64,000 nucleotides of DNA from a virus (Duplodnaviria; Caudoviricetes), in IMG/VR virus record IMGVR_UViG_3300032030_004230; one strand, written 5' to 3'. Below the pieces are notes generated by a model that was not told where the DNA came from, ran no database searches, and saw only the letters and a program-made list of their open reading frames with translations. A program made the translations under genes and the position numbers. Below, one piece after another: positions 24,390-63,182 of the stretch (positions are counted from its first letter, which is position 1; each line of letters opens with the position of its first letter).

Positions 24390-24458
24390 TTGCAGTGGCT
24401 CCTTATCTGTTTTTTGTCATTATAACAGAAATAATATAATAAAAGTTAGTATAAGATT

Positions 24459-59467: not shown

Positions 59468-59806
59468 ATGGATAATTCTTTTATGCACCCGTCTACATAC
59501 GATGACGGAAATATTGACATTTCGAAAGTAGATATTGCAGCACAGACACAAAATTTACGTAGGGAGCCTACAGAGACATCTCTGCCAAAAGGCTATATTG
59601 TGCTGCATAATGTGACTGGCGGCATGGCTGTTGTAAAAGCATCAGACATTTCAGTTTTCTTCAATGACAAAGTCAAAGACAACCCGCAGTCTTTCGTAAG
59701 TATTCTTCCAGAATCTGGAAAGTGGCAGCTTAGAGTAAAGGAGCCTTTGTCTGATGTTGTTGCTAAGATTGCTGAAGCTCTAGACGACGAGGCTTATGAG
59801 GAGTGA
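59468..59806 (+). CDS. Hypothetical protein
   Basis: ORF below a GTTAAT motif. Confidence 0.7.
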   Translation: MDNSFMHPSTYDDGNIDISKVDIAAQTQNLRREPTETSLPKGYIVLHNVTGGMAVVKASDISVFFNDKVKDNPQSFVSILPESGKWQLRVKEPLSDVVAKIAEALDDEAYEE

Positions 59807-60386
59807 AGCTGAATTCTGTACTGTAATTGGACATTCTCTTGTAACTGGTTACAAAATCCCAGATGAATCAGGCTTTCAATTCGGCGCTAAAACAAGCATT
59901 CGATGCTTTGACGGCATTGGCATGCTTCCAGAAAATTACTTAGACAAGTCGAAAGATGATAGTCTTGTATTTATCCCATGGGAAGCAAAGCATCTTAAAG
60001 ATATGAGTGCTTTCTCTCTTAAAAGAGTTGAAGTGCATCAGGATTACTACTTGTCTGAATACAGTAAAGCTAAGAGTGTCTATCCGCTTTTAATTGTCGG
60101 GGTCTCAGTAAGCAGAGGCGACAATAGAGCTTACATTTTTGACTATCGTAGAATCGGTCATCGACTATTTCAAGCAGAATTCTCTATTCATAAAAAGTTT
60201 CTAGAGAAGCTTCCATACAATCCTATCCATAAAGGAAAATTTAATTTCGACAACATTCTAACAGAAGAAGATTTTGTGAAAGTTTATGATGATAAAAACT
60301 TCTGGAAGAAAATTGAGGAGACTATAAATGTCAAGCAAAGCGAAAAAAATTCAGACGCATATAGAGACAACACACCCAATGAGTAA
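59796..60386 (+). CDS. RecU-like Holliday junction resolvase (PD-(D/E)xK)
   Basis: E..F, KIPD, FD, WEAK, HQ..YL motifs. Confidence 0.6.
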   Translation: MRSEAEFCTVIGHSLVTGYKIPDESGFQFGAKTSIRCFDGIGMLPENYLDKSKDDSLVFIPWEAKHLKDMSAFSLKRVEVHQDYYLSEYSKAKSVYPLLIVGVSVSRGDNRAYIFDYRRIGHRLFQAEFSIHKKFLEKLPYNPIHKGKFNFDNILTEEDFVKVYDDKNFWKKIEETINVKQSEKNSDAYRDNTPNE

Positions 60387-60699
60387 AGATGCTCGTAAAG
60401 TAGCAGAAGATATTGCAAGCAATCTTGTGACTATTGGAAACTGCTCTTGCGGAAATGCATTGATGATTGCTCTTGGCGATGAGCACCCGTTCAATTACTA
60501 CTGTCTTAACTGCAATGCAATCGGCGATGTACGCATTCCGAATAGAAATCATAAATTCTTGAGAGTAGGGATTGAAGAAAATAAAGTGCTCAATTCACCT
60601 CTTGAACTTTTGAAGCATGCATACAAGTCGATGCAGAACAAAGACATTACTGATGAAATGATAAAGAACACTGCTATTGACAACGATCGAAATTGTTAA
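60328..60699 (+). CDS. Zinc-ribbon protein
   Basis: CSCG..YCLNC; GAGGAG RBS. Confidence 0.65.
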   Translation: MSSKAKKIQTHIETTHPMSKDARKVAEDIASNLVTIGNCSCGNALMIALGDEHPFNYYCLNCNAIGDVRIPNRNHKFLRVGIEENKVLNSPLELLKHAYKSMQNKDITDEMIKNTAIDNDRNC

Positions 60700-60739
60700 T
60701 TTTTCTAATAGAGTCATTCATGACTTGAAGGAGATAAAA

Positions 60740-61081
60740 ATGAATCTTACAGGTGAAAAATTTCGAGGAAAATGCGGAAAAGACTATCAGGAAAACTTGA
60801 ACAAACCTGGCAAATACACCATCGAAGTCATTGACTATGATAATGAAGATGGCTTCACAAATGTTGAAGTTGATGTAAAAGCTGTCTGTCTCAGTGAAGA
60901 AGGCTCTGGCGAGCATACAATCATTGCTGAGTTCCTTGATGGCAAAAAGAAAGGTGAACTTCACATGATGTATTACAATGGCAATCAGGGCTGTTGGAAA
61001 TATGGTCCAACTGGTTGGGACAAAGATGTTTCAACAGTATATCCGCAGCTCTTTGAAAAAACTGTCGAGTTTGACGAATAG
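60740..61081 (+). CDS. Hypothetical protein
   Basis: AAGGAG RBS before MNLTG. Confidence 0.7.
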   Translation: MNLTGEKFRGKCGKDYQENLNKPGKYTIEVIDYDNEDGFTNVEVDVKAVCLSEEGSGEHTIIAEFLDGKKKGELHMMYYNGNQGCWKYGPTGWDKDVSTVYPQLFEKTVEFDE

Positions 61082-61082
61082 C

Positions 61083-61112
61083 TTGAAAAATTTACAGAAA
61101 CTTTATTATATT
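61083..61112 (+). promoter_or_regulatory. Sigma70-like promoter upstream of tmRNA
   Basis: TTGAAA-18 nt-TATATT; same arrangement at 61574-61603. Confidence 0.65.
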
Positions 61113-61158
61113 ATTTAAGTCTTTCAGCTTTACTAATAAAGCTGAAAGACAAATATTC

Positions 61159-61524
61159 GGGCGTAACTTTTGGAATCGATTGGTACCAGAGTAGCCTACA
61201 TATCATGCGTAGTGGTTAGTGTACCCTAAAAGCACCGTAAGAAACGACGCTAATGTTTCATATGCTAAAGTAGCGTAAGCTGATTAGCATCTAGAGACTA
61301 CGAGAGCTCTAGCGGCTAGATGCAAAGATGTAGGTAGTAGCATTCTTAGTTGTCACATACCACCTTCTAGGAAATCGTAGATGCGGAGCGAGAGCATGTA
61401 ACGATAACGACAAAACTTGGGCAGAAACCGGTAGCTATCCCGAATCGAAAACTAGCTTAAGCATGTATAGAAATATGTATGCAAAAAGGTAAGCAAGACC
61501 TGAGTTCGAATCTCAGTACGTCCA
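61159..61524 (+). ncRNA. ssrA: tmRNA
   Basis: Acceptor stem GGGCGTA/TACGTCC-A with G3.U70, GGAATCGA D-loop-like motif, T-arm CTGAG-TTCGAAT-CTCAG, tag frame (N)DANVSYAKVA* at 61243-61278. Confidence 0.92.
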
Positions 61525-61573
61525 CTTATACAAAATTTCAAAGTAGACAAAGCGGTGGTAAGTGCTTGGATTT

Positions 61574-61603
61574 TTGAAAATTTGCAGAAGTAGTTATTAT
61601 ATT
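61574..61603 (+). promoter_or_regulatory. Sigma70-like promoter upstream of the large ncRNA candidate
   Basis: TTGAAA-18 nt-TATATT. Confidence 0.65.
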
Positions 61604-61609
61604 ATTTCT

Positions 61610-62267
61610 GTAAGGTTGAACCAAAGAACAACTTAAAAAATCTTGGTGGTGGGTGCGTAGCTCTTTGCTACCTATTGGCTTAGAGAGGTCAAATGCTCTA
61701 GCTGATAAAGGTAATCCGGAAACCTTTAACCGGTGATGTGATGGTGGACACTTAAAACACTCGACCTGGCTGGTGATACAGCAAGTATAAGAGACTATTA
61801 TGCCTTTAGCTGAAGTTCTCTTATATGGGAGAAAAGCCCTGAGTTTCCTAATAGAGCTCTAGAGTTGGACTTTGTAGACCAAGAGATCCTATTCTTAGAA
61901 ATAGGGGATGCAACGGCAAAGTTAAAAACAACGCGAAACAACAAGTTTGTTAGCGGCTCCAGTTTCAAACGTGGGAACATCTGCATTCTGAGAATTGACT
62001 CAGACACATTAGTATAGGCTTAAGATGATGCAGCATCTGAAAGCCATATTTATCCTGAATAGTTTTTCCTGGCTTTTCCGCAAAAACCAGGTGGTGGAAG
62101 TTTGCATTGATTTTTGTTGAAACCGATGCATCCCTTTATTCTGAGTAGAAATACTCGGTGAGAGTTCCTCATGGATAGGGAACCGGATAATCACATGCCG
62201 GCGCTGGCGGATTCAACCTCCGCAACTCTTAGAACTGTATGTCATACAGTGTATAATCCATCCTTTT
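61610..62267 (+). ncRNA. Large structured ncRNA candidate (GOLLD/ROOL-class size and context)
   Basis: No credible ORF, raised GC, many hairpins, own promoter and terminator, next to tmRNA. Family not established. Confidence 0.6.
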
Positions 62268-62310
62268 AGCTGGGGACGCGGCCTTATTTTTCCGTTCCCA
62301 GCTTTTTTCT
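62268..62310 (+). terminator. Intrinsic terminator
   Basis: AGCTGGGGA/TTCCCAGCT stem plus T-run. Confidence 0.75.
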
Positions 62311-62438
62311 TTTAAAGACTAAATTTTTTAGTTCATTTGCAATGAAAATCAATGCATGTCATTATTATATTATTATAGCATTAAAATGATAGGGAATGTC
62401 AATATTTGCAAAGGATTGCAAAGCAAAAAGGAAGAATT

Positions 62439-63182
62439 ATGAAAAAAGTTGAAGTAGTGATGGTTGCAGCTTGTGTAGCAATTTGGCTTGGTGTTGTAGC
62501 AGTTTCTGTTGCAGCTGCAAAAGTTTGTAGTAGAGAACCTGTAGTAGTTGAAAAGCCTGAAATTACTGTAAAATTTGAATCTGGTGTAGAACTTGTTATT
62601 GAGAGAAAAGAAGACTCATACGACTATTCTCTTGCTCTTATGACTTTTTCTGCTATGAAGAAAGCTGAGCTAGACATGGACTGGAATGATGCCCTCTATG
62701 TTTCTGAGACAATTACAAGGAAAGCTAAAGAAGCTGGATTAGATCCTCGAGATGCTCTTATTTTATGTCATGTAGAATCAGACTTTAAGTATGATGCAAA
62801 CAACAAACGCGGTGGTGCAGTAGGGCTTTGTCAAATTACTAAACCTTGTCTAAAAGAGTACAATGATTGGACTGGAAACTCCTACACTATGAATGATATG
62901 TGGGAAATTGACAAGAATCTTACTGTAGGCTTTTGGTATATGAAGCATCTTATGACAGTCTACGCAAAGCGTGGATATCCTATTCATACAATTAGAGATG
63001 CATATATAGCCTACAATGTAGGCCCATCTTATTACAAAAATGCAAAGAATAGAGAAATGCTTGAAGCAGGAAAGCACTACAACAAATACACTAAGCGTTG
63101 GGAAGTCTACAATGCAAACAAGCGTTTTGATAGAATTGCGCAGAGCTATTCTTTCGAAGCATTAGATTATAGCTTTATGTAG
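62439..63182 (+). CDS. Lytic transglycosylase (SLT domain) with N-terminal signal/anchor
   Basis: VESDF, GAVGLCQI, N..VG..Y, AYNVGP. Confidence 0.88.
   Translation: MKKVEVVMVAACVAIWLGVVAVSVAAAKVCSREPVVVEKPEITVKFESGVELVIERKEDSYDYSLALMTFSAMKKAELDMDWNDALYVSETITRKAKEAGLDPRDALILCHVESDFKYDANNKRGGAVGLCQITKPCLKEYNDWTGNSYTMNDMWEIDKNLTVGFWYMKHLMTVYAKRGYPIHTIRDAYIAYNVGPSYYKNAKNREMLEAGKHYNKYTKRWEVYNANKRFDRIAQSYSFEALDYSFM

Follow-up and report, generated by a model that had tools for sequence, protein, structure and literature searches.

A candidate composite non-coding RNA gene beside the tmRNA gene of a very large rumen phage

Introduction

To our knowledge, large structured RNAs of bacteria and phages that lack a known function are rare. 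Unusual RNA-only assemblies have recently been shown for GOLLD, ROOL, OLE and raiA. The tRNA region of phage T4 gives rise to two stable RNAs, species 1 and 2, which are about 120-140 nt long, show tRNA-like features in some cases and are processed from a tRNA precursor. GOLLD and ROOL, which have been found near tRNAs in prophages, are large RNAs of about 600-800 nt with many helices, often located in phages or prophages beside tRNA-type genes (PMC5737381). The wcaG RNA of T4-like cyanophages (RF01761) is about 98 nt long and is listed as a cis-regulatory candidate (PMC2864571).

Here we analyse a 64,000-nt stretch of viral DNA (IMGVR_UViG_3300032030_004230, hereafter the window) that carries on its plus strand, at 61607-62310/62313 and directly 3' of a tmRNA gene, a candidate RNA gene. 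The candidate is like GOLLD and ROOL in its size, in its location in a huge phage and in having a tmRNA as neighbour, but it looks bipartite, its fold is without covariation support and neither model matches it at E<=10. It shares with wcaG RNA a 5' module (a hairpin followed by GGUGGUG), which in the candidate, in contrast to wcaG RNA, opens a 250-nt, terminator-ended unit (unit 2) within a transcript of about 700 nt. Several phage tmRNAs (RF00023), and that of Selenomonas ruminantium, have this module within their pseudoknot domain. Compared by description with species 1 and 2 of T4, the candidate would likewise be a stable phage RNA with some tRNA-like features among tRNA-type genes, but a longer one, of about 700 nt. 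As an overall explanation we propose a composite, two-unit phage non-coding RNA gene, read on the plus strand from its own promoter to an intrinsic terminator, and we give this explanation an even chance of being right.

Results and Discussion

The locus and its transcription unit

The window derives from a very large (giant or huge) rumen phage. It encodes a piece of a family A polymerase and a clamp loader, and the SLT protein of this phage is also on record on a contig of 326,542 bp. The closest relatives that we found are a complete IMG/VR genome of 300,878 bp with terminal repeats (G001) and a 97-kb contig, which come from sheep-rumen metagenomes (IMG 3300021387 and 3300021255; PMC6118326). 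The features of the locus are collected in Table 1.

Table 1. Features at the candidate locus (window coordinates) and the family B stretches of related contigs
Feature	Position	Strand	Basis
Divergent tmRNA-like gene, upstream neighbour	61159-61527	+	Full-length match to Rfam RF00023
Candidate's promoter: TTGAAA, 18 nt, TATATT, with phage motif TTATTATATTATT	61574-61606	+	Site at 61574-61603, TTATTATATTATT at 61594-61606
Candidate non-coding RNA: transcription unit without ORF, about 700 nt	61607-62313	+	No ORF, G+C content, MFE z, no Rfam match
Unit 1 leader: hairpin, GGUGGUGG, second short hairpin	61618-61676	+	Architecture alignment, L027 block
Hairpin with loop GUCAAAU, then GAUAAAG	61679-61711	+	Family B 5'-domain model, 6.9 bits
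Unit 2 leader: 5-bp hairpin, GGUGGUGG, second hairpin, UCCC; canonical copy of the widespread module	62063-62134	+	Model R3
7-bp hairpin with GAAA tetraloop	62141-62158	+	Fold, stem check
tRNA-sized four-way junction, 7-bp closing stem	62160-62230	+	MFE and centroid fold of 62159-62232
7-bp hairpin with 3-nt loop	62234-62250	+	Fold, stem check
CCAUCCUU, a word that family B, too, keeps invariant close to its 3' end	62258-62265	+	Read by eye; 3'-domain model gives no support
Intrinsic terminator: 10-bp G+C-rich stem and T-run	62268-62313	+	Fold z -4.9
Next copy of the phage promoter motif, for the SLT gene at 62439-63182	62342-62374	+	Motif search
Family B RNA in related contigs	L021:130-861; L029:2587-3290; L028:1944-2674; L030:1148-1849; L027:3198-3930; L031:116-848		

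The tmRNA neighbour named in the initial annotation is a divergent, tmRNA-like gene that aligns to RF00023 over the full length of the model and scores below the gathering score of 47 (37.6 bits, E 4e-13). ARAGORN missed it at default settings and called it at 90% thresholds. The tRNA-like ends are visible, with an acceptor stem containing a G3:U70 pair and a T-arm that can be read from the sequence, and the tag frame was read by homology with G001, where ARAGORN assigns a tag. When window 61323-61472 is set against L002:1501-1649 of G001, a block of 103 nt from the pseudoknot part shows no difference, and the remaining gene is barely alignable; as far as these alignments tell, the phage tmRNA is a mosaic. 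A scan of bacterial genomes gave no match to the 103-nt block. In another contig, 91% identical to the window, the tmRNA has a different tag-coding segment (L026:560-975).

The candidate was also said to have its own promoter and terminator, and both are found. Its TTGAAA/TATATT site comes with a 13-mer, TTATTATATTATT, which occurs eight times in the 64-kb window with at most one mismatch (0.24 copies expected) and whose 12-nt core, TATTATATTATT, is unchanged in all eight copies. They sit 30-40 nt 5' of gene starts, and three successive ones stand ahead of the tmRNA, the candidate and the SLT gene. From this distribution, TTATTATATTATT is a phage-specific, promoter-like motif. The minus strand of the window carries copies at 24430, 26689, 28800, 49765 and 51468 and the plus strand at 61103, 61594 and 62362, each pointing the same way as its downstream gene. 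At its 3' end the candidate has the terminator hairpin and T-run listed in Table 1.

Huge phages sometimes reassign stop codons, and G001 has a suppressor-type tRNA with anticodon UUA. A hidden protein-coding sequence, consisting of small proteins or of a recoded gene, could be imagined on these grounds, but we find it hardly credible for this stretch. The absence of a credible ORF, already stated in the initial annotation, holds on both strands and in four genetic codes (table 11, table 4, TAG=Q, TAA=Q), with no ORF of 100 aa or more overlapping 61550-62400. The longest table 11 ORF in this region has 69 aa and lies on the minus strand, as does the longest frame obtained with recoded stops (table 4, TAG=Q, TAA=Q), whose 125 aa would require three readthroughs. 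Further, a Pfam search of the longest ORFs of the candidate gave zero matches, and the neighbouring genes are normal in table 11.

The G+C content of the candidate (42.7%) is close to that of the tmRNA gene (43.1%) and above the window mean (36.5%). The full-length plus strand has an MFE z of -3.3 against dinucleotide shuffles (n=40), in a test that gives the tmRNA gene itself only -1.4. Since the minus strand, with a z of -4.4, is at least as stable against shuffles as the plus strand, thermodynamics leaves the strand unfixed; it is the promoter and the terminator, not stability, that fix it. We consider it fairly likely that the locus is a real structured non-coding RNA gene.

Comparison with known RNA families

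The initial annotation had suggested membership of the GOLLD or ROOL class, with a cmscan search against Rfam as the check, and the outcome of that search speaks against it. At gathering scores, Rfam 15 gives no match in the whole window, and cmscan of 60900-62500 with permissive filters returned, at E<=10, only the tmRNA and chance microRNA and snoRNA lines. The models of GOLLD (RF01998) and ROOL (RF03087) are matched neither at the gathering score in the window nor at E<=10 in 60900-62500. OLE, RNase P RNA, group I and II introns, 6S and SRP RNA gave no Rfam match to the candidate either, and wcaG RNA (98 positions) has no match at E<=10 in 60900-62500, having only the 5' module in common with it. 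The candidate itself leaves RF00023 unmatched; tmRNA-type ends are absent from it and no tag frame was recognised. With its default settings ARAGORN reports no tRNA anywhere in the window, and RF00005 is unmatched at E<=10 in 60900-62500. The candidate is probably a real, new and composite phage non-coding RNA that matches no catalogued family.

A single near-identical copy of the candidate

A blastn search against the INPHARED phages found no DNA similar to the candidate, and in the whole genome of G001 only the tmRNA is similar to the window locus. For the body of the candidate (about 61712-62057 and 62135-62257), neither INPHARED nor G001 nor any fetched locus contains a relative. Relatives carry a homologue of the upstream 113-aa protein elsewhere in the genome, and this route led to the only other copy of the candidate, on a 2,903-nt contig of JGI sample 3300024337 (L025) that is 99.96% identical and corresponds to window 59506-62304 with one mismatch in 2,799 nt (at 61954). 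L025 leaves the window at 62305, within the T-run of the terminator, and its last part (L025:2800-2903) is unrelated and opens another gene; the switch reflects variation between genomes or else a chimeric assembly. Because this sole full-length copy is near-identical, the pairs predicted in the body are without covariation support.

L025 also bears on whether the candidate could be a long regulatory leader, riboswitch-like or an attenuator, of the downstream SLT transglycosylase gene. That gene is close by and on the same strand, and the related wcaG RNA counts among the candidate cis-regulatory RNAs (PMC2864571). However, the RNA is separated from the gene by a strong terminator and a new copy of the promoter motif, L025 has a different gene after the same RNA, and the SLT homologues of other phages are without such an upstream region, which makes a leader function very improbable. 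None of these homologues is close: in a search of 5.8 billion clusters the next best are 33-41% identical and non-syntenic, and IMG/VR yielded no SLT homologue.

The slot after the tmRNA in related phages

Relatives of the locus were fetched with a 22-mer of the shared 103-nt tmRNA block, which gave five metagenome contigs, and by protein look-ups, which gave more. In six contigs (L021 and L027-L031) an ORF-free stretch of about 720 nt, which we call family B, lies directly 3' of the tmRNA (Table 1). Its six copies are 79-93% identical, with a G+C content of 48% against 36.6% in the flanks. From the same alignment in which the changes were then counted, and which represents only about three lineages, RNAalifold predicts 231 pairs, with 96% of cells paired, 32 pairs changed on both sides and 43 on one; when the partners are slid by 1-2 columns as a control, two-sided changes number 2-6. 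Judged by these compensatory changes, family B is a real structured RNA, and no family in Rfam matches it. In family B, a core of some 110 nt is almost unchanged between copies, and there is a hairpin of the T-loop type; the invariant core was not found in a scan of IMG/VR. A gene for EF-Ts lies a few genes 3' of the RNA. One of the six contigs, L021, comes from the sheep-rumen assembly AUXO01 (PMC4158751).

A different ORF-free stretch of about 340 nt, the 340-nt family, follows the tmRNA in G001, L010, L019 and L020, and in L017 and L018 the tmRNA leads directly into an ORF without any such RNA stretch. Across these loci, the slot directly 3' of the tmRNA is variable and is often held by what look like long RNA genes. 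In G001 the 340-nt RNA candidate (L002:1700-2075) has a GTTAAT motif before it and a hairpin with a T-run at its end. An array of 24 tRNA genes comes next, one of them with the suppressor-type anticodon UUA; several of the spacers between these tRNAs look structured. We also considered whether the candidate is akin to this 340-nt RNA and rejected the idea, the local alignment being at shuffle level. In L028, a 226-aa ORF that by eye has the look of a GIY-YIG-type homing endonuclease (L028:1218-1898) sits between the tmRNA and the large RNA, an insertion that fits a mosaic locus.

The candidate is like family B in its slot, size, raised G+C and leader architecture, in a T-loop-type hairpin and in CCAUCCUU. 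Compensatory changes, however, are a property of family B, and the bodies of the candidate are without detectable homology to it. With nhmmer, a profile of family B has no match in the window, and the global alignment of the two (z 1.4-2.9) is not convincing. A covariance model of the first 169 positions of family B aligns over its full length at 61662-61850, weakly (6.9 bits), with an E of 0.03 in 2.5 kb and of 0.79, at rank 3 and at noise level, in the whole window; it pairs a family B hairpin with 61679-61711, where the GUCAAAU loop and the 3' flank are the same and the stem letters differ. The candidate is not matched by a second model, which covers the last 109 positions. The two 3' ends have the same order of elements, namely a T-loop-type hairpin, CCAUCCUU and the terminator.

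A widespread leader module

Two places in the candidate, 61615-61655 and 62068-62100, show the same succession of a hairpin, GGUGGUGG and a second, variable hairpin. This arrangement is also present before the family B RNA (three times in L027 and once each in L028, L030 and L031), with whose leaders those of the candidate align in architecture, and the 340-nt RNA of G001 opens with the same arrangement. We defined the module as a 5-bp hairpin with a covarying fourth pair and a loop ending in an A-run, followed directly by GGUGGUGG. A search pattern written from the copies in L028, L031 and the window occurs in at least 120 stretches of IMG/VR (L032-L151, for instance L069:8040-8140 and L041:3845-3955) and in 38 of bacterial genomes. 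IMG/VR holds at least 103 distinct viral copies, and in 101 of 103 the variable stem position is paired (A-U 47, U-A 47, G-C 4, C-G 1, G-U 2); in a control of 35 mostly chance matches from bacterial genomes, the two stem letters are unrelated.

Rfam places the module within the pseudoknot domain of tmRNA in four phage contigs and at the 5' start of wcaG RNA matches in four IMG/VR contigs. Tandem copies occur too, and many others belong to unannotated elements that are about 100 nt long, close with a terminator and sit just behind the ends of genes. A module common to tmRNA pseudoknot domains and wcaG RNA points to a shared, hitherto unrecognised building block or protein-binding site. The tmRNA of Selenomonas ruminantium, scanned with Rfam in L163, holds the module as well; this may hint at the host lineage of these rumen phages or at where the module comes from. 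The module pattern is found with identical flanks in five S. ruminantium assemblies (L163:768-796, L169, L170, L177 and L185).

A model built from 40 IMG/VR copies of the module (R3) has its sole match in the 64-kb window at 62063-62130, with 27.4 bits and an E of 2e-6; this match is not fully independent, the search pattern having been written partly from the window copy, and the 40 copies used for training stem from phages other than this one. R3 also matches the copies in L027, L028, L030 and L031. The first leader of the candidate, at 61618-61676, is not among the R3 matches in the window at E<=1, and it is a more distant variant that shares the architecture of the module. A block of 42 nt around it (61615-61655) is 95% identical to L027:3074-3115, with unrelated flanks on both sides; among the family B relatives compared, it is the one significant sequence similarity of the candidate. 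An exact word of this leader had no match in IMG/VR.

Three copies of GGUGGUGG are found in the 64 kb, two of them inside the candidate, and TGGTGG has 15 plus-strand copies in the window, four of which fall within the candidate. A genome-wide, Chi-like role of GGUGGUGG was rejected on its frequency, which is three copies per 64 kb in the window and in G001 seven against four in a control, that is, unenriched. A plain test for a hairpin before TGGTGG was dropped as too unspecific, with a background of 17%.

Two units or one fold

The two leaders divide the candidate into what we read as unit 1 (about 61607-62057) and unit 2 (about 62058-62310). The stems that the initial annotation had listed are all present in the candidate: AAAGGT at 61707 with ACCTTT at 61722 and TCTGAG at 61987 with CTCAGA at 61999 in unit 1, and, in unit 2, CCTGG/CCAGG at 62068-62091, TGCATTG at 62103 with CGATGCA at 62124, the GNRA hairpin, GAGAGTT at 62160 with AACTCTT at 62224 and ACTGTAT at 62234 with ATACAGT at 62244. 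Beyond its leader and the GUCAAAU hairpin, unit 1 has some 350 nt whose helices are predictions without comparative support.

In unit 2, the GAGAGTT/AACTCTT stem closes the four-way junction, and a T-arm-like hairpin of 5 bp with the 7-nt loop UUCAACC (62207-62223) stands directly before the 3' strand of this closing stem. The fold of 62159-62232 alone is not significant (z -1.5), and a loop of 11 nt occupies the place of an anticodon loop. ARAGORN gave a poor call for 62160-62230, with a poor acceptor stem, at 80% thresholds only. An identity as tRNA was rejected, as no tRNA model accepts the segment and its 11-nt loop stands where an anticodon loop would be.

Since neither a promoter motif nor a convincing terminator was found between the two units, both are probably made as a single transcript. 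This transcript might also be taken for one ornate RNA some 700 nt long, of a new GOLLD/ROOL-like class that could, for example, form a self-assembling RNA particle late in infection. Size, many helices, a phage tRNA-type neighbour and one promoter and one terminator overall agree with a single fold, as do the precedent of GOLLD and ROOL near prophage tRNAs (PMC5737381) and the 720-nt covarying RNA in the same slot of the relatives; also, the full-length z of -3.3 is better than those of units 1 and 2 taken separately (-1.6 and -2.5). On the other hand, Rfam gives no match, the long-range helices predicted for such a fold are without comparative support, and the module forming the internal leader (62063-62134) stands in other places at the head of separate RNAs. 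On balance we hold a single ornate fold to be unlikely. The broader proposal of the initial annotation, a new large RNA, survives in part: it is the best reading, and relatives have RNAs in this slot, but the anatomy looks like that of two leader-headed units and not of one 700-nt fold. For two units in place of one fold, we put the chances just short of even.

Selected RNA or recombination debris

A reading of another kind takes the candidate as a fast-evolving and largely functionless spacer, debris left by recombination in a tmRNA and tRNA region, with a decayed tRNA and copied pseudoknot modules of tmRNA, that is transcribed and whose fold is unselected. The content of the slot is wholly different among close relatives, with L017 and L018 going directly from the tmRNA into an ORF; the pieces that are shared are short modules with unrelated flanks; the near-identical L025 diverges exactly at the terminator; the tmRNA itself is mosaic; and the junction at 62160-62230 resembles a degenerate tRNA. 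Against debris stand the dedicated promoter, the strong terminator, the raised G+C and the above-chance stability of the candidate, as well as its unit 2 leader, a module copy that is intact and scores well. Moreover, neighbouring phages keep selected large RNAs in the slot. We regard debris as rather improbable; if it were the right reading, the locus would show that phage RNA loci are shuffled at module boundaries.

Possible role of the composite RNA

If the locus is the composite two-unit gene that we favour, plus-strand transcription would start at the phage-type promoter (61574-61606) and end at the terminator (62268-62313). The resulting primary transcript would be about 700 nt long; in it, unit 1, from about 61612, and unit 2 would each open with a leader made of a short hairpin, single-stranded GGUGGUGG and a second hairpin, and unit 2 would carry a tRNA-like four-way junction with a T-arm mimic. 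One or two stable folded RNAs might then exist alongside the phage tmRNA, as part of the translation and RNA toolkit of the phage. The leader could serve as a 5' protective or recognition element, and the tRNA-like part could, as decoy or scaffold, engage tRNA- or tmRNA-handling factors. These functions are suggested by the context of the candidate.

More tentatively, the slot in this clade of sheep-rumen huge phages may be a home of large, fast-diversifying structured RNAs, all with a shared leader, that form one or more new GOLLD/ROOL-like classes tied to translation and ribosome rescue, with the candidate as a fully functional member; we see this as possible but doubtful. If true, a tmRNA-side slot holding different large RNAs would supply several new examples at once, and would tie large RNAs to tRNA and tmRNA handling or to ribosome rescue during infection.

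In relatives, genes for EF-Ts and for a beta-CASP nuclease are found nearby. The latter encodes a 463-aa metallo-beta-lactamase/beta-CASP/RMMBL protein of the RNase J/CPSF type (L022:6363-7754, L023:6388-7779 and L027:8890-9113), a candidate RNA-processing enzyme of these phages, and lies a few genes from a homologue of the protein encoded at window 60740-61081.
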